From: Escherichia coli
GTDB taxonomy: Bacteria; Pseudomonadota; Gammaproteobacteria; Enterobacterales; Enterobacteriaceae
Assembly: GCF_050920415.1 (NCBI RefSeq)
Contig: NZ_CP169309.1
Strand: one strand, 5' to 3'
Length of the DNA: 64,000 bases
The notes beneath the pieces are model-generated. The model did no database searches. It was given only the letters and a program-made list of their open reading frames with translations, and had not been told where the DNA came from. Shown in pieces: positions 1 through 61,466 of this stretch (its first letter is position 1; each line of letters starts with the position of its first letter). Made by a program: the position numbers and the translations under genes.

Positions 1-12
1 GGCAATGTAATC

Positions 13-915
13 ATGCGCTGGATTAAAACAGCCCGTGACCGTGATGAAATGGAAAGGCTAATGCAAGCGGCTTGCGATGCTTTCACGGAAGAAATACCCC
101 GAGCGGAGGCCGTGCCAGTGCCGGAAATTGATTTTCAAAAAAGTCTGGCCCTTTATCCGGTATTCGATTTGCATATAGGGGCGCTTGCTCATAAAGCTGA
201 GTGCGGCGAAAGCTACGACACCGGGATCGCTGAACGCGTGCTAAATGATTTCTTTGACTACGCGGTAGGCGCTGCGCCAATGTCTGAAAAGGCTGTTTTG
301 CTTCTCGGCGGTGATGTGCTTCACACTGACGGCCTGTTACCAGTGACGCCATCAAGTAATCACGTTTTAGATTGTGATTCACGCTACGCAAAACTGGTTT
401 ATGTGGCGATCCGGTCGGTCCGGCGTGCGGTCGGGAAGATGTTACTAAATCATAAGGATGTCGAGATCCAGGTATTATCCGGTAATCACGACCAATCAGG
501 TATGATCTGGCTACGTGCTGCGCTTGCGGCTTTTTACGAAGATGAGCCGCGTGTGACTGTTGACGTGTCACCTGCCATTGTCCACCACACACAGTACGGC
601 AAAACATTCCTTGCTTACCACCACGGGCACACTATCAAAAAGCCAGAAAATTTACTTTCTGCCTGCGTTTCTGACTGGCGGGAGGATTTCGGCAAGTCGT
701 CGGCGGTTTACGCTCATTGCGGGCACTGGCATCATCAACGGCTGATTGAATCATCGTTAGGCGTTGTCGAGTATCACGGCACATTAGCTGGCAAAGACGC
801 TTATTCAACGAATGGCGGCTGGCGGTCGCGGAGGCTGGCGGCGGTAATAATTTACAGTCCTGATCACGGGGAGATCGGGCGCTTTGTTTATTACCCTGAA
901 TATTCCATTTTGTAA
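13..915 (+). CDS. Calcineurin-like metallophosphoesterase-fold protein (phage-associated); may be 5'-truncated by the window edge
   Basis: Motifs DLHIG, GGDVLHTDG, GNHD, HHGH, GHWHH in the translation; reading frame is open back to position 1. Confidence 0.55.
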   Translation: MRWIKTARDRDEMERLMQAACDAFTEEIPRAEAVPVPEIDFQKSLALYPVFDLHIGALAHKAECGESYDTGIAERVLNDFFDYAVGAAPMSEKAVLLLGGDVLHTDGLLPVTPSSNHVLDCDSRYAKLVYVAIRSVRRAVGKMLLNHKDVEIQVLSGNHDQSGMIWLRAALAAFYEDEPRVTVDVSPAIVHHTQYGKTFLAYHHGHTIKKPENLLSACVSDWREDFGKSSAVYAHCGHWHHQRLIESSLGVVEYHGTLAGKDAYSTNGGWRSRRLAAVIIYSPDHGEIGRFVYYPEYSIL

Positions 916-933
916 ACCTGAGGAAATACCATA

Positions 934-2355
934 ATGGTGACTGAGCAAGTAAACTCATTACGCCAGGAACGGGAAGCTGCTGTGATAGGTGGACTCCTGT
1001 TAGGCGGGCTTACTCCTAACGCGCAAGATGTTCTTGCTACGCTCGATCCTGAAGTCTTCACCATTCCACTATATAAACGAGCGTTTGAGATCATCCGGGC
1101 GCAAGCCAGAAACAGAAACCTTATTGACGCGCTGATGGTCGGTGATGAAATCGGTAACGAAAATTTTGTCCCGCTAATGCAAACTGCGCGATCGTGTCCA
1201 TCTGCCGCCAACCTGAAGGGGTACGCCGCGCTATTGCAGGAGGAATATCAGCGGCGGCAAATGCTGGAACTAATGGACGATATACGCTACAACCTGGAAA
1301 CCGGGACACTTGAATCTGTCAGGGAGACGATGAAATATTTTGATTCCCGGTATTCAAAATTAAAGGTAACAAAAGATCAGATTATCCCGGTGCTGTTGCG
1401 CGATGCTGTCCAGGAATACACGGAAGTGCTAAGTAAACGCATGGAGTGTGGCGTGAACTCTGACAACATCAAAACAGGGATTGACCCACTCGACGAAATG
1501 TTAGGCGGCATTAACGCTACTGATCTGGTGCTTATAGCTGGACGCCCAGGGTCTGGTAAATCTGCGTTGGCGTTGGCAATTGCCCGCGCGGCGGCTGAAC
1601 GTCCATACCCTGGCAGCGAAGGTCAACGGGTCGGCGTTTTGCTGTTCACGCTTGAAATGTCGCTCGATCAGATGACTGAACGAGCTATCGCTGGCGCTGG
1701 GAATTTATCAACGGATTGCCTACGTAATCCGGTAAAACTGGATGACGAAGGATGGGCGCACGTTGCCCAGGGGATGAGCGCCCTTGCCGATCTCGATGTG
1801 TGGATTGTTGACGCATCGCAGTTAACGGTTGAGGAAATACGCGCCACCGTCGAACGGATGAAACAGGACCATCCTAATCTTGGAATGGTGATGATTGACT
1901 ACATCGGGTTAATGAAACTGGCTAAGGCCGAACGTCATGATCTCGCCGTAGGGCAATTGTCGTGGTCATTGAAAATGATGGCGAAAGAGTTGCGCGTGCC
2001 AGTGGCGGCGCTGGCGCAATTATCCCGCCGCGTTGAAGAACGACCGAACAAGCGCCCGAACAATTCTGATCTGCGTGATTCCGGTAATCTTGAACAAGAC
2101 GCAGACCGGATCATCATGGTCTACCGCGACGGCTACTACAACGAACAATCAGTTGCCCGCGAATACATGGAGATCATCGTTTCAAAAAACCGTCACGGGA
2201 AAACGGGGACTGTTTACCAGCGGTTTGACGATAACGGCAACATCATTCCATGCGACCAGGCTCGCGCGGCGTCCGCCTGCATCCAGTCAATGCAACAACG
2301 TCCGGCAGCAAGCCGATTCTCCCCACGAAATAACCAGAATAACTCATCCTTTTAA
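934..2355 (+). CDS. DnaB-like replicative DNA helicase (phage type)
   Basis: 473 aa; Walker A motif GRPGSGKSALALAIA and DnaB-like N- and C-terminal regions; GAGGA ribosome-binding site before the ATG. Confidence 0.8.
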   Translation: MVTEQVNSLRQEREAAVIGGLLLGGLTPNAQDVLATLDPEVFTIPLYKRAFEIIRAQARNRNLIDALMVGDEIGNENFVPLMQTARSCPSAANLKGYAALLQEEYQRRQMLELMDDIRYNLETGTLESVRETMKYFDSRYSKLKVTKDQIIPVLLRDAVQEYTEVLSKRMECGVNSDNIKTGIDPLDEMLGGINATDLVLIAGRPGSGKSALALAIARAAAERPYPGSEGQRVGVLLFTLEMSLDQMTERAIAGAGNLSTDCLRNPVKLDDEGWAHVAQGMSALADLDVWIVDASQLTVEEIRATVERMKQDHPNLGMVMIDYIGLMKLAKAERHDLAVGQLSWSLKMMAKELRVPVAALAQLSRRVEERPNKRPNNSDLRDSGNLEQDADRIIMVYRDGYYNEQSVAREYMEIIVSKNRHGKTGTVYQRFDDNGNIIPCDQARAASACIQSMQQRPAASRFSPRNNQNNSSF

Positions 2356-2434
2356 TTAACTTGAGCAAACGGCTTACCGGAAAGTTGATCTCTTTCTGGT
2401 GGCTGTTTTCGCGCTTAAAACGAGGCGAAAAACA

Positions 2435-2992
2435 ATGAGCATTGAACTTGAAACAAAAGTTATCAATATCCTTGAACTGGACGGCATCGCAACAATGCAC
2501 CAGCTACGCCAGAAAACCGGATTATCAGCGGAATATGACGAAGCCGGATGTTTGCCTGAGACAATTAAACACTTGATTGATACTGGTATTGTCGAGCGTG
2601 TATATACATATTTCGGACCGCGCCGCAGATTATTGGGGTATCGAATTAAATATTTGTATGCACAACGTCGTGATCGTGTGGCGGCGTTATTTAGTGACTA
2701 CAGCGTTAAGAAGCGTATGCGTGACATTAGCGCGGAAACTGGTATCCCGTGGAATTACCTGTCGCGCACGCTGCGTTTAATGGTACTTGATGAAACGCTT
2801 TGCATAGACACCAATAAACACGGCCTTAACTTTTACTCACTGTTTAAACCTGGTCGCTTTGGTCACGCTAATGATCTCGCGTTTGATTTTGACAGCCGCC
2901 TGAATGAATACCGGAAAAATAACGGCCTGTTACCGGATAAACCAGTATTTGAGATCGAAAAACTTAACGGTGAAACGGGGTTAGAATTATGA
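2435..2992 (+). CDS. Hypothetical phage protein with an N-terminal winged-helix-like segment
   Basis: ORF 2399-2992; start chosen at MSIELETKV after a GAGG ribosome-binding site; no recognised family. Confidence 0.45.
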   Translation: MSIELETKVINILELDGIATMHQLRQKTGLSAEYDEAGCLPETIKHLIDTGIVERVYTYFGPRRRLLGYRIKYLYAQRRDRVAALFSDYSVKKRMRDISAETGIPWNYLSRTLRLMVLDETLCIDTNKHGLNFYSLFKPGRFGHANDLAFDFDSRLNEYRKNNGLLPDKPVFEIEKLNGETGLEL

Positions 2993-3195
2993 GACGGGTA
3001 ATCTTTTATTCAGTTGAAACGTTTGTCGACGATACGCGCGTTTATTATCCGTGGGAAGTATACGACGCAAAGGTGTATACACCGCCACTGATGCGGAAAT
3101 ATAAACACGTAAAATTTAACCGGGTTTTTGTGCCAATGCGCGATGCATTGCGGGCGCTGCGCGGGGAATTACGAAACACAATGCGGATTGTGTAA
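2989..3195 (+). CDS. Hypothetical small phage protein (68 aa)
   Basis: ATGA start/stop overlap with the upstream ORF suggests translational coupling; no recognisable motif. Confidence 0.35.
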   Translation: MRRVIFYSVETFVDDTRVYYPWEVYDAKVYTPPLMRKYKHVKFNRVFVPMRDALRALRGELRNTMRIV

Positions 3196-3205
3196 GGAGG
3201 GGATT

Positions 3206-3403
3206 ATGAACAAGGATTTAGAATTGACCGTGGAGGATTTAAGCACGATTGCGGAATACATGCGCGGCGATGATCCTGATAAACCTGTCACTGTTGACAT
3301 GAAATATTTAAAAGGCGCTTACATGACAAGCTCGCGGCTAATTTCTTTGCAGGCGATTATGTATGCGCGGGCGCAATGGAAAAATAGCAACGGTGTATTA
3401 TGA
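3206..3403 (+). CDS. Hypothetical small phage protein (65 aa)
   Basis: Strong Shine-Dalgarno AAGGAGG 6 nt upstream of the ATG at 3206; stop overlaps the NinB-like start. Confidence 0.45.
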   Translation: MNKDLELTVEDLSTIAEYMRGDDPDKPVTVDMKYLKGAYMTSSRLISLQAIMYARAQWKNSNGVL

Positions 3404-3831
3404 GGCAAATTAGATTTGAAGTAGTTAATGACGCCGTGAAAGAAAATGCTATCAGGCAGATAAGGGAAATACAGCCTGATAGCAAAAGCCCGCTGATAAT
3501 TACCATCCAGGAGAAAACCCGCTCACTAAGCCAAAATGCGTTGCTTTGGGCGCTGCTAACCGACATTAGCGATCAGGTTAATTGGTACGGCAAGAAGCTG
3601 TCTCCGGAAGACTGGAAAGCGGTATTCACTGCCGGACTTAAGAAATATGGCGTCGTCCCTAACCTGGATAAATCCGGCTTCGTTGTATTGGGAACGTCTA
3701 CAAGCCGGATGAGCAAATCGGAATTCAGTGAACTAATCGAATTAATTTACTCGTTCGGTGCTGAACATAATGTCCAATGGTCGGGTGATACGAAATTAAA
3801 TGAGGAATTCATAAAACGCTGGGGGCAATAA
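3400..3831 (+). CDS. NinB-like recombination protein (lambda Orf/NinB family)
   Basis: 143 aa; pattern IQEKTRSLSQNALLWALLTDISDQVNWYGKKLSPEDWKAVFTAGL resembles lambda NinB as recalled from memory. Confidence 0.7.
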   Translation: MRQIRFEVVNDAVKENAIRQIREIQPDSKSPLIITIQEKTRSLSQNALLWALLTDISDQVNWYGKKLSPEDWKAVFTAGLKKYGVVPNLDKSGFVVLGTSTSRMSKSEFSELIELIYSFGAEHNVQWSGDTKLNEEFIKRWGQ

Positions 3832-4007
3832 TGGCGCGTTATTATATGGCTAAACCTACCGGAATTTTGTATAAGGTTGATGGCGAATACGTTTTTTATT
3901 TTCACAACCAGGCGCGAGAGTGGCGATTGTGTCACGCGCACTTTCAGCACGAAATAGAAAACCACCCTGAATATTTTATTAAGGTTGACAATGTAACGGT
4001 GGCGTAA
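3831..4007 (+). CDS. Hypothetical small phage protein (58 aa)
   Basis: ATG overlaps the NinB-like stop by 1 nt (TAATG); translation MARYYMAKPTGILYKVDGEYVFYFHNQAREWRLCHAHFQHEIENHPEYFIKVDNVTVA; below the ORF-track length cut-off. Confidence 0.35.
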   Translation: MARYYMAKPTGILYKVDGEYVFYFHNQAREWRLCHAHFQHEIENHPEYFIKVDNVTVA

Positions 4008-4022
4008 CTGAGGATAGGCAAA

Positions 4023-4667
4023 ATGAATAAACTTAAAGCAATTGGCGTAATTCGCCATCGTGTAGACCCGGACTACCCTTCTTTTGAGGTTGCCACATAC
4101 CGCAACGAATACCAATATGGATCATCTTTCCTTGTGGGTGTTCGCGCTGATACTGGCGGCACTTATTCAGTTATGGCGGCTTCATGTGTTTTTGAAGAAT
4201 ATAAAAATATAGATGATGACGGCATGAATAAAGAAAGCGAAATTATTGATGAATTAATCGAAGATGAGCGGCATGATTGCGATGCGCCGAAAGTCACGGA
4301 ATGGAAACCAGGAGAAAAGCCTCCGTGCGGCGTGTGGCTTGATTGTTATTATCCTGATGGCTATCACATTGGGATTTTAATGTTTAAATTTATCGGTGAT
4401 AAATACGGGGTATACACAGAAAAAGGCAGTATACAGAAAGAAAATGCTATTGAATGGGGTTTTTATAATTATTATTTATACGTTGATCCGAAAGAAAAAG
4501 CACTGGCACAAATTGCGTTTGCGTTGGCTGCTAAGGTTATTGGTGAGGATGCGGCAGGAGAAATAAATTTCAATCGTGATAATGATTATTCGCGTGATTA
4601 TCGGAATATGGCAAAAGCCATTATTAATGGGGATATCCCGCTAACTAAATATAACGGGGATAAGTGA
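4023..4667 (+). CDS. Hypothetical protein, AT-rich cargo ORF (214 aa), function unknown
   Basis: GAGGA ribosome-binding site; markedly lower GC than flanking genes; acidic stretch followed by a Cys/His-containing segment (HDCDAPKVTEWKPGEKPPCGVWLDCYYPDGYH). Confidence 0.5.
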   Translation: MNKLKAIGVIRHRVDPDYPSFEVATYRNEYQYGSSFLVGVRADTGGTYSVMAASCVFEEYKNIDDDGMNKESEIIDELIEDERHDCDAPKVTEWKPGEKPPCGVWLDCYYPDGYHIGILMFKFIGDKYGVYTEKGSIQKENAIEWGFYNYYLYVDPKEKALAQIAFALAAKVIGEDAAGEINFNRDNDYSRDYRNMAKAIINGDIPLTKYNGDK

Positions 4668-4897
4668 TGGATAAAACCGCGACATTGTTATTGACTACGG
4701 CACGAATAAGGGAAATGCTCGGAGGAATAAGTAGGACAACATTCAGAGTATGGAAAATGAAATGGGAAGCGGCTGGAACACCATTTCCTGAACCGCTTCA
4801 CGAATTATCAACTACGTCGCGCCCTGTATATCGTTATCAAGATGTAATGCAGTTCTTTAAGTCAGTAGGCTTGCTTTCTGATACTGATAAAACGTAA
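4664..4897 (+). CDS. Putative excisionase / AlpA-family DNA-binding protein
   Basis: 77 aa; helix-turn-helix-like TTARIREMLGGISRTTFRVWK; lies next to the integrase; start overlaps the upstream stop (ATGA). Confidence 0.45.
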   Translation: MMDKTATLLLTTARIREMLGGISRTTFRVWKMKWEAAGTPFPEPLHELSTTSRPVYRYQDVMQFFKSVGLLSDTDKT

Positions 4898-6057
4898 TTA
4901 GCCCATAATTCCGCAGCGTCTTTCTGTTCTTCTACATAATCATATCTGTCATAAACTCCTAATACTCCGCCCAGGGTATGGCCCAACATTTTTTCGGCTA
5001 CCTGGGCGGTCACGCCTAATGCCGCTAAATGCGTGCGGCACGTCCGGCGCAAATCATGCGCAGTAAAACCCGCCTTAAATCCAATTTCATTACTAAGCCT
5101 TGTCGCTAGTCTTGTGCACACAGCTTTATCCATTGGTTTACCATCCAGCGACAATACCGCAGGGAAAACTATGTCGAAGTTGTGACAATTAAACATCATG
5201 CTTAATAGCTCGACGCTTAACGTTGACAGGCCGCGCGTAAACCGCTTTTTGTTTTTGGATAGTTCCGCAGGAATATTCCATACCCTGTTATTGAGATCAA
5301 AATGTTCACGCTTTGCTAGCCTCAATTCTACCGTCCTGCATCCTGTTAATAGCAGTAGTCTGAAGAATGTCATATTGGCCTTAGACATAAAATCGCCAGT
5401 CGTAAAACGCCAGAATTCCCCTACTTCCTCGCCAGATAAATATCTGTCGATCTTGCGCGGCGGTTTGCCAACGTCTTCCACTCGCAACAAGCGGATCTCG
5501 TTGTCTTTTACTATCCCTTTCCTTTGCGCCATAGCGACAATGGATTTCATGCGTCGTAACATCGCGCCAGCCTGTACCGGATGGCCCGCTTTCGTTATCT
5601 CTGAGAATATTGCCTCCCACGCCCTTGCGTTAATGTCATCCACAATAAAATCGCCATACCTCTTGATTATGTGCTTTTGTAAGTTTTGCTTGATCTCTTT
5701 GTATCCCTTAATTTCCCTGGTCGTCTGTTTATTAAGATAGTTGTTAACGATATCGCTAACGGTTGCTCTCGCCCTCGCCTCTTCAATGCGCTGCTTCTTA
5801 GCAAGTCCGGGATCTTTGCCGTCTGCTAATATCGCCTTGCACTCAATTACCGCTAGCCTGGCTTCCTTTAGCGTCATTATGCCATAGTTGCCTAGCTTCA
5901 TTCTTTTAGGCTTCCCGTCATACCTGTAGCGATACTGAAACGTAATTACGCCTTTCGGGCTTACCCTTACTGACAGACCGCCGCCATCCGGGATCTCGAC
6001 CGGACCATCATAACTTTTACCGTGGATGCTTCTTAACTTAGTGTCAGATAACGCCAT
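4837..6057 (-). CDS. Site-specific tyrosine integrase (P4 family)
   Basis: 406 aa; N-terminal arm-binding-type region (GLSVRVSPKGVITFQYRYRYDGK), C-terminal catalytic signature HDLRRT...LGH...YDRY. Confidence 0.85.
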   Translation of the reverse strand: MALSDTKLRSIHGKSYDGPVEIPDGGGLSVRVSPKGVITFQYRYRYDGKPKRMKLGNYGIMTLKEARLAVIECKAILADGKDPGLAKKQRIEEARARATVSDIVNNYLNKQTTREIKGYKEIKQNLQKHIIKRYGDFIVDDINARAWEAIFSEITKAGHPVQAGAMLRRMKSIVAMAQRKGIVKDNEIRLLRVEDVGKPPRKIDRYLSGEEVGEFWRFTTGDFMSKANMTFFRLLLLTGCRTVELRLAKREHFDLNNRVWNIPAELSKNKKRFTRGLSTLSVELLSMMFNCHNFDIVFPAVLSLDGKPMDKAVCTRLATRLSNEIGFKAGFTAHDLRRTCRTHLAALGVTAQVAEKMLGHTLGGVLGVYDRYDYVEEQKDAAELWANYVLSVSESKPTDLKNCITS

Positions 6058-6464
6058 AATCGCCCCTTATTTGGTGCACAACATGGTACACAAATCATGG
6101 TTTACGCAATATAACGCAAAAGCGCGCTTGTTTACAGCGAAAACCAGTAAATCTACTAAATTCATGGCGTTAGGGGTGATTTTGCTTGCGTATGTTTACG
6201 CTTGTGCGCGGTATGTAGCATTAGAAAGAGAAATGCTGCTGACCAACAGCGCACAACACGTGACTGAAACAGAGTGCTTCATAAGTTACCCTCAAACCTG
6301 CGTTAATAATCATGCGTAATTATTTGTTTCGCCTTAAAGAAATGCAAACAACTTCCGGCAAAAAAGTGATACGAGATCGATAACATAGCGTTGAAGAAAA
6401 GGATTTGATAATCCGCAAAATTTGCACAACACTGCCTGTAATACTTCCTGAACCAGAGACGATC

Positions 6465-7193
6465 ATGACCGTAACTCGCCCACGCGCCGAACGCGGCGCA
6501 TTTCCGCCCGGTACAGAACATTACGGACGTTCATTATTGGGCGCGCCTTTGATCTGGTTTCCGGCCCCAGCCGCCAGTCACGAAAGTGGTTTGATTCTGG
6601 CTGGCACCCACGGTGATGAAAACTCTTCGGTCGTGACCCTCTCCTGTGCTCTGCGGACATTGACACCTTCTTTGCGCCGCCATCATGTGGTGCTGTGTGT
6701 GAATCCTGACGGCTGCCAGTTAGGGTTACGGGCCAATGCTAATGGCGTGGATTTAAATAGAAACTTTCCGGCAGCAAACTGGAAGGAAGGTGAAACGGTT
6801 TATCGCTGGAACAGCGCCGCTGAAGAACGTGATGTCGTTTTACTGACAGGTGACAAACCTGGCTCCGAACCTGAAACTCAGGCGCTGTGCCAGCTTATAC
6901 ATCGCATTCAACCTGCCTGGGTGGTCTCATTCCACGATCCACTGGCCTGTATTGAAGACCCCAGACACAGCGAATTAGGTGAATGGCTGGCCCAGGCGTT
7001 TGAATTGCCACTGGTAACCAGCGTCGGTTATGAAACGCCTGGCTCTTTCGGCAGTTGGTGTGCAGATCTGAACTTGCATTGCATCACCGCAGAGTTTCCG
7101 CCCATCTCCTCCGACGAAGCCAGCGAAAAATATCTCTTTGCGATGGCAAACTTGCTGCGCTGGCATCCTAAAGATGCAATTCACCCGTTGTGA
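6465..7193 (+). CDS. mpaA: Murein peptide amidase A (gamma-D-Glu-Dap amidase)
   Basis: Translation MTVTRPRAERGAFPPGTEHYGRS...; 242 aa from the internal ATG, matching the known length. Confidence 0.85.
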   Translation: MTVTRPRAERGAFPPGTEHYGRSLLGAPLIWFPAPAASHESGLILAGTHGDENSSVVTLSCALRTLTPSLRRHHVVLCVNPDGCQLGLRANANGVDLNRNFPAANWKEGETVYRWNSAAEERDVVLLTGDKPGSEPETQALCQLIHRIQPAWVVSFHDPLACIEDPRHSELGEWLAQAFELPLVTSVGYETPGSFGSWCADLNLHCITAEFPPISSDEASEKYLFAMANLLRWHPKDAIHPL

Positions 7194-61094: not shown

Positions 61095-61466
61095 AGCTCC
61101 TCCTTAATGACAGGGTTGCGAAGCCCTGATTCTCTTCAGGGTGAATATTAAAGATAACACAAACATTGCGTAACGATTTGATAACAACCCAAATTGATAA
61201 AAGAGGAGAAACCTTGTGGCAAAGCAAATGAAAACCCCGCCGCAGCGGGGTCAGGGATCAGTGAGTAATGATCCAGAGGAGTTCGGCCCAGAAGAGCATC
61301 GACAGAGAAAATGCGCCCATCCAGGACCAATATTTCATATTTGTGTTGATCATAGGCTACACCCTTAACGGTTATTACTTTGTGTTGAGATAACTCAACC
61401 TGTTATTGCTGCGGTGTATTAAAAGCCCTTTAATTCATTAAAAATGGGTAATAAGAATGATGATAA

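Follow-up and report, generated by a model that had tools for sequence, protein, structure and literature searches.

In the 64,000-nucleotide stretch of Escherichia coli DNA analysed here (the window), the DNA lying between a phage integrase gene and mpaA, previously described as unassigned, is very probably the integrase-side end of an mEp021-like (mEpimmI group) prophage of about 54 kb, inserted in the signal-peptide codons of mppA. Bounded by the int ORF (4837..6057, minus strand) and the ATG of mpaA at 6465, the gap covers window positions 6058-6464, i.e., 407 bp and not the 408 bp originally reported, and it is fully accounted for by a phage arm, a crossover core, a displaced mppA stub and the divergent intergenic region between mppA and mpaA. 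The junction is the integrase-proximal one, which corresponds to attL by lambda and mEp021 convention. The features on which the following paragraphs rely are listed below with their window coordinates.

1..4836, plus strand: right-hand part of the prophage, replication and nin module (DNA identity to mEp phages, Pfam, PHROG)
13-915, plus strand: exonuclease-like ORF (PHROG 'DNA repair exonuclease')
934-2355, plus strand: DnaB-type helicase (Pfam/PHROG)
2399-2992, plus strand: MarR-like ORF (Pfam/PHROG)
3400-3831, plus strand: NinB (Pfam/PHROG)
4023-4667, plus strand: 214-aa ORF with no family match in Pfam/PHROG
4664-4897, plus strand: 77-aa DNA-binding ORF (PHROG 'DNA binding protein' family)
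4837..6057, minus strand: tyrosine integrase, 406 aa, mEpimmI 'type III' (Pfam and identity to the LSU61 Int)
6058..6223, minus strand: phage-derived, int-proximal att arm, 166 bp from the int start codon to the core (alignment, absence from phage-free genomes)
6072..6092, minus strand: two tandem TGYGYACCA repeats, candidate arm-type Int sites (motif scan; 12 bp centre to centre)
6164..6319, plus strand: 52-codon ORF (51 aa, beginning MALGVILLAYVYACARYVALE), judged non-coding (chimera, no family match)
6196..6282, minus strand: displaced 5' stub of mppA, native codons 1-20 followed by the phage-encoded tail NATYRAQA and a stop (translation; 28 codons, MKHSVSVTCCALLVSSISLSNATYRAQA)
6224..6231, minus strand: crossover core, 8 bp, GAAAGAGA on the plus and TCTCTTTC on the minus strand, equal to mppA codons 18-20, Ser-Leu-Ser (sequence table)
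6232..6464, no strand assigned: host DNA, i.e., mppA 5' codons and the 182-bp divergent mppA/mpaA intergenic region at 6283-6464 (identity to a phage-free strain)
6319..6348, minus strand: sigma-70-like promoter match, TTTGCA, 18-nt spacer, AATAAT (consensus scan only)
6340..6369, plus strand: 30-bp element in single copy, AAATGCAAACAACTTCCGGCAAAAAAGTGA (sequence search, alignment)
6465..7193, plus strand: mpaA (murein tripeptide amidase), intact (ORF and genome comparison)

The identity of the target gene was established by sequence matching. A megablast comparison with 5,426 complete E. coli genomes showed that in 5,418 of them window positions 6214-6369 correspond, on the opposite strand, to the 5' end of mppA, and the minus strand, read from ATG AAG CAC TCT onwards, gives MKHSVSVTCCALLVSSISLS, the native MppA signal peptide, followed by NATYRAQA and a stop. 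What borders the integrase gene is thus a 5' stub of mppA and not a tRNA gene. The same integrase stands beside the same stub in the complete genomes of strain GF66.2 and of the O157:H7 strain LSU61, where PGAP annotates the stub as an incomplete pseudogene and where mppA resumes about 54 kb away, past a complete siphovirus-like prophage. In agreement with the original prediction, which had seen no tRNA, ARAGORN returned neither tRNA nor tmRNA genes over the whole 64-kb window and an Rfam scan of positions 5900-6600 was blank even at a permissive E ≤ 1; the lack of a tRNA at the junction is explained by the target being a protein-coding gene. The sole match in the window at the Rfam gathering threshold was the enterobacterial sRNA STnc180, at 61224-61426 on the minus strand (202.7 bits).

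The position of the crossover was read from a junction table of eight sequences, namely attP (viral contig L008), attB (K-12 and the short-form genome, L007), the int-proximal junction (window, GF66.2 and LSU61) and the int-distal junction (GF66.2 and LSU61). No block other than the 8-bp TCTCTTTC is shared by attP, attB and the two types of junction, and the flanks swap exactly at this block: on the minus strand the int-proximal junctions carry host sequence to the left and phage sequence to the right, and the int-distal ones the reverse. Identity between attP and the host is restricted to these 8 bp and a few flanking bases. The sequences thus read as a clean reciprocal exchange inside TCTCTTTC. 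The attP predicted from the two junction types, AATGTCTCTTTCTAATGCTACA, had one exact match in IMG/VR, on a 54.5-kb viral contig (L008, UViG_3300045988_060283) in which it lies between the tail-fibre terminator and int, and a search of IMG/VR with an Int peptide pattern returned this same contig and nothing else. Along the contig the attP region is ordered as tail-fibre stop, strong terminator, two TGYGYACCA repeats, a 27-codon ORF, two further TGYGYACCA repeats and the int ATG. A fourth int-proximal junction was present on one metagenome contig. Site-specific recombination by the tyrosine recombinase would exchange strands within TCTCTTTC, with the catalytic domains acting on imperfect inverted half-sites around a 7-8-bp overlap, an arrangement that in attB would read AGCATTT-CTCTTTC-GTATGCT. 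The expectation that the stretch holds the element boundary was thus borne out, with the core at 6224-6231; the detection of an att core had also been named beforehand as an observation speaking against the first reading of the stretch as unassigned, and such a core is indeed there, while for the other observation named in this way, identity to the K-12 intergenic region, the outcome is a partial one, since parts of the stretch equal K-12 sequence.

The prophage itself belongs to a known group. Window positions 1-4800 are 84-93% identical at the DNA level to phages mEp021, mEp010, mEp013, mEp044, mEp515, mEp554 and MagusPhagus, and the E. coli lysogens in which this module recurs are those that PMC11893012 tabulates (its Table 2); the remainder of the prophage lies to the left of the window start. 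The ORF at 13-915 corresponds to the 3' portion of a 372-codon gene of GF66.2, the window starting inside the prophage. The integrase had been proposed to be of the P4 type, and the corresponding domain architecture (Arm-DNA-bind_3, Phage_int_M, Phage_integrase) was found: Arm-DNA-bind_3 (PF13356) scored 70.1 bits (E 1.8e-19) and PF00589 65.3 bits, both above their cut-offs, and the central Phage_int_M domain (PF22022) scored 23.5 bits, slightly under its cut-off of 27. Motifs GCRTVELR, HDLRRT, LGH and VYDRY, as read by eye, are candidates for the catalytic Arg, His-x-x-Arg, His and Tyr. The protein is identical to the LSU61 prophage integrase WP_206663893.1 at 398 of 406 residues (98%) and to the integrases of isolated mEp phages (type I and II) at 47-49%; when int and the arm were compared together by megablast with 50,697 phage records, no match was obtained, so that no isolated phage among them carries this integrase. 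The available text of PMC11893012 (Front Microbiol 2025) describes the LSU61 prophage as the sole member of integrase group III, and gives the initiation region of mppA as the integration site of this group, so that the attachment locus had been published before. On each of the three criteria tested, the sequence of the element identifies it as an mEpimmI (mEp021-like) prophage with a type III integrase at mppA. As for the 77-aa ORF at 4664-4897, its product is a candidate excisionase or directionality factor. The ORF is convergent with int, whose 3' end it overlaps by 61 bp; at the equivalent position relative to its own int, mEp021 has an HTH gene.

On the phage side of the core, the arm at 6058-6223 was aligned with its equivalents in GF66.2, in LSU61 and in the intact attP of the viral contig, and the mean column identity was 97%; phage-free E. 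coli has nothing corresponding to it. The two minus-strand repeats of the arm are TGTGTACCA (6092-6084) and TGTGCACCA (6080-6072), and a matching pair, TGCGTACCA and TGTGTACCA, is found in the other attP arm, at L008 8757 and 8769; in the entire 64-kb window the degenerate TGYGYACCA motif occurs just four times. The assignment of these repeats is supported by the matching layout of mEp021, whose attP region has a near-identical terminator (GAAACGAGGCTAACGCCTCGTTTC) followed by TGTGTACCA-type repeats in both arms (L013 1-185 and L014 2880-3156). The integrase of mEp021 is of type I, about 47% identical to the one in the window, and its site is dgcM/ydaM, which suggests that mEp021 and the type III element may have a common arm-binding specificity and a swapped core specificity. 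The N-terminal arm-binding domain of Int would accordingly recognise the two tandem TGYGYACCA pairs, and the pair at 6072-6092, located 15-35 bp upstream of the int ATG, could also serve in the autoregulation of int. A search with the strict IHF consensus found no site in either arm.

The consequences of integration for mppA are best appreciated at the far junction. In GF66.2 and LSU61 the gene is there annotated as a full-length CDS of 1,611 nt (1,614 nt in K-12) that starts with MNKIMIY..., and its first codons are phage-derived: MNKIMIYISFLPLCVMSLS, then YA/AEVPSG..., the slash marking the cleavage position. The phage supplies the start codon and 18-19 hydrophobic codons (MNKIMIYISFLPLC[V/I][M/I]SLS), in frame with the rest of mppA. 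Since the in-frame fusion retains the signal-peptidase site LSYA/AE, these lysogens still code for MppA at its full precursor length, and the mature protein is unaltered. The N-terminus of the phage leader is basic, its 13-residue hydrophobic core exceeds that of the native leader in hydrophobicity, and the S-Y-A cleavage motif is kept, so that the hybrid MppA is probably still exported and lysogens probably keep a working MppA; MNKIMIYISFLPLCVMSLSYA-AEV would then act as a surrogate MppA signal peptide. This reconstitution of mppA was seen in the sister lysogens GF66.2 and LSU61 only, the rest of mppA lying outside the window because the window begins inside the prophage. In the present genome the far end would be expected to read tail-fibre gene, terminator, ATGAATAAAAT... 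leader, TCTCTTTC and GTATGCTGCAGAAGTT, from mppA codon 21 onward.

In the free phage the leader is part of a 27-codon ORF (MNKIMIYISFLPLCIMSLSNATYRAQA, then a stop) that runs across the attP core at L008 8803-8886, and integration turns the first 19 codons of this ORF into the MppA signal peptide. Three copies of this ORF differ by two synonymous changes and by the replacements S to L, V to I and M to I, with the hydrophobic character kept; as the IMG/VR search gave a single contig, the conservation of the leader ORF rests on these three sequences. The attP of mEp021, when checked for a surrogate leader ORF, had no obvious one, and shared only a 13-bp stretch with the sequence preceding dgcM; the surrogate-leader feature is therefore not generalised to the group. 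With regard to expression, the promoter-like sequence at 6319-6348 is also present upstream of mppA in K-12, and in the window it faces the stub and then int, so that read-through from the native mppA promoter into int would be possible. On the phage side, a strict scan of L008 detected no plus-strand promoter before the leader, and reading by hand gave a weak match, TTG(C/T)GT-16-TATTAT, which would be a possible phage-borne promoter ahead of the leader. A fuller scheme can be drawn from these elements, namely a two-way promoter swap in which phage signals and leader drive mppA, the native mppA promoter feeds int, and MNKIMIYISFLPLCIMSLSNATYRAQA represents a purpose-built 'gene-repair cassette'; we consider it unlikely. 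If it were true, murein-tripeptide uptake would be uncoupled from native mppA control, and the supply of integrase, hence the competence for excision, would follow the regulation of host peptidoglycan recycling.

To the right of 6231 the window is, base for base, normal host DNA in an allelic form that a minority of E. coli carries: positions 6232-6700 are identical to the phage-free strain MFDS1022581 at 469 of 469 sites. As had been anticipated, DNA from upstream of mpaA is present in the stretch, with a megablast match at 6340-6465. K-12, GF66.2 and LSU61 have pgrR, ycjY and ymjC-type genes between mppA and mpaA, and these are absent from the window. This could be taken to mean that the element, by integration or by a faulty excision, removed pgrR-ycjY-ymjC and placed int beside mpaA, all the more so as the two sister lysogens, like K-12-type genomes, keep the block between stub and mpaA. 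Such a rearranged junction is nonetheless highly improbable. Divergent mppA and mpaA, 182 bp apart and with no pgrR-ycjY-ymjC between them, occur in 173 of the 5,426 complete E. coli genomes, and the one inspected among the 173, MFDS1022581, has no prophage in mppA and is matched exactly by the window outward from the core. Furthermore, the short form has its own diverged mppA leader allele, shared with Escherichia sp. MOD1-EC7003, and the breakpoint of the block does not coincide with the att core but falls about 110 bp from it, inside a 30-bp repeat. In long-form genomes this 30-bp element (AAATGCAAACAACTTCCnnCAAAAAAGTGA) is a direct repeat flanking pgrR-ycjY-ymjC, with two copies in K-12 (L002 7127-7156 and 9573-9602, 2,446 bp apart) and two in GF66.2; it is single in the short-form genomes, among them MFDS1022581 (L007 4127-4156), and in the window; a literature search for a PgrR operator matching the repeat yielded nothing usable. 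An exact-pattern scan of one genome per species recovered two non-coli Escherichia, of which MOD1-EC7003 has the short form (L012) and E1V33 the long one (L011). Comparison of the genomes thus identifies the missing block as a natural host polymorphism that arose independently of the phage, and of the original alternative between an atypical attachment site and a rearranged junction the former half stands, the site being a non-tRNA one in mppA codons 18-20, whereas the element itself caused no rearrangement. The mppA gene of MFDS1022581 (L007 2457-4069) is annotated as frameshifted, and some lineages lacking pgrR-ycjY may therefore also be losing mppA. The mppA-pgrR spacer beside the stub is variable as well, with an IS1 in GF66.2 (L001 12568-13265) and a fragment annotated as QueH in LSU61 (L005 9452-9526). 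Another reading would regard the mppA-like segment next to int as a copy carried by the phage, comparable to the icd 3' duplication of phage 21 and e14; the phage would then sit upstream of an untouched mppA. The stub region is only 91.7% identical to K-12 mppA and at first sight resembles a diverged phage copy; the differences, however, cluster in the mppA leader and are those of the short-form host allele, to which the window is identical, GF66.2 and LSU61 carry the K-12 version at the same junction, and, apart from the core and a few bases adjoining it, the intact attP holds nothing of mppA. A phage-borne copy is as good as ruled out by the content of attP, by the junction table and by the identity to MFDS1022581 at all 469 positions.

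The short ORF at 6164-6319 deserves separate consideration, as it might encode a real small membrane protein, such as an exclusion or moron peptide that the prophage would encode and express from its att region. The ORF exists as described, with its ATG at 6164 and TAA at 6317-6319, its first 20 residues are hydrophobic, and the same ATG and hydrophobic start recur in the free-phage attP, as read by hand on the reverse complement. The lack of a Shine-Dalgarno sequence holds true too, the preceding bases AAATCTACTAAATTC showing no SD-like purine run. A membrane-like gene product, in turn, is not supported: the frame is a chimera of the phage arm (6164-6223), the core and the antisense strand of the mppA stub and leader, its residues 24-51 being antisense to host mppA leader and signal-peptide codons that are present in every E. 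coli, and it belongs to no family in Pfam or PHROG. In the free-phage attP the same ATG opens a different ORF, which by hand reading stops after 32 codons with another C-terminus; the 51-aa product therefore exists only after integration. In addition, among four copies the phage-derived part of the frame has two substitutions and both are non-synonymous (A2V and L8R, translated by hand), the latter placing an Arg within the hydrophobic run. A genuine membrane protein is thus very unlikely here, and the ORF is almost certainly a by-product of the join and not a gene.

With the prophage junction as the preferred reading, the feature is real and of an already described kind, and current understanding of such elements is unchanged. 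For a locus that the available text of PMC11893012 gives at the gene level, base-level coordinates of the core, the arm repeats and an intact attP are now provided, and to these is added the finding that the signal peptide is replaced in frame. What is mildly new is confined to the phage-supplied signal peptide, which adds another case of a prophage repairing the 5' end of a gene, to the possible promoter swap and to the pgrR-ycjY polymorphism bounded by the 30-bp repeat. For annotation purposes, the gap between int and mpaA can be closed as an att junction with an mppA pseudogene stub and not as a new gene or an aberrant island end, and annotators should be aware that E. coli genomes differ in whether they contain the pgrR-ycjY-ymjC block.

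Several known systems resemble the mppA prophage in part. The attP of lambda has its core between arms that carry arm-type Int sites; similarly, the mppA prophage has a short core, 9-bp motifs that recur in each arm and an Int whose arm-binding domain is separate, but transcription of its int leads away from att and, unlike that in lambda, not towards it, the search for an IHF consensus in the arms gave none, and the repeats are candidate sites only. P4-family integrases use the 3' ends of tRNA or tmRNA genes as targets. The mppA-prophage Int is like them in its N-terminal Arm-DNA-bind_3 domain and in the int start codon facing att, and unlike them in its target, which is not a tRNA gene, none being present in the 64-kb window. 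Phage 21 and e14 integrate within the coding gene icd and carry a surrogate gene end, by which the gene stays intact; they replace the 3' end of icd with a homologous copy of about 160 bp, whereas the mppA prophage replaces a 5' end with non-homologous sequence, identity being limited to 8 bp and a few flanking bases. Closer in this respect is the Rac prophage in ttcA of K-12, which supplies an alternative N-terminus and leaves a 5' pseudogene stub, ttcC', at its other end (PMC4632033). Rac and the mppA prophage have in common an att site in the 5' coding region, a new N-terminus and a leftover stub; nevertheless, they differ in integrase and phage type, and Rac alters four residues of a cytoplasmic enzyme, while the mppA prophage replaces a whole Sec-type signal peptide together with the upstream expression signals. 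The closest relative is the mEpimmI prophage of LSU61 (PMC11893012), with the same backbone, a 98% identical Int and the same junction sequence and core, the host alleles being distinct: LSU61 has pgrR, two alpha/beta-hydrolase genes and an SDR gene between mppA and mpaA, which are direct neighbours in the window. The available text of PMC11893012 presents the mppA site at gene level, with att motif III in a figure, and does not mention the replacement signal peptide, which the comparison of the two junctions now brings to the fore.
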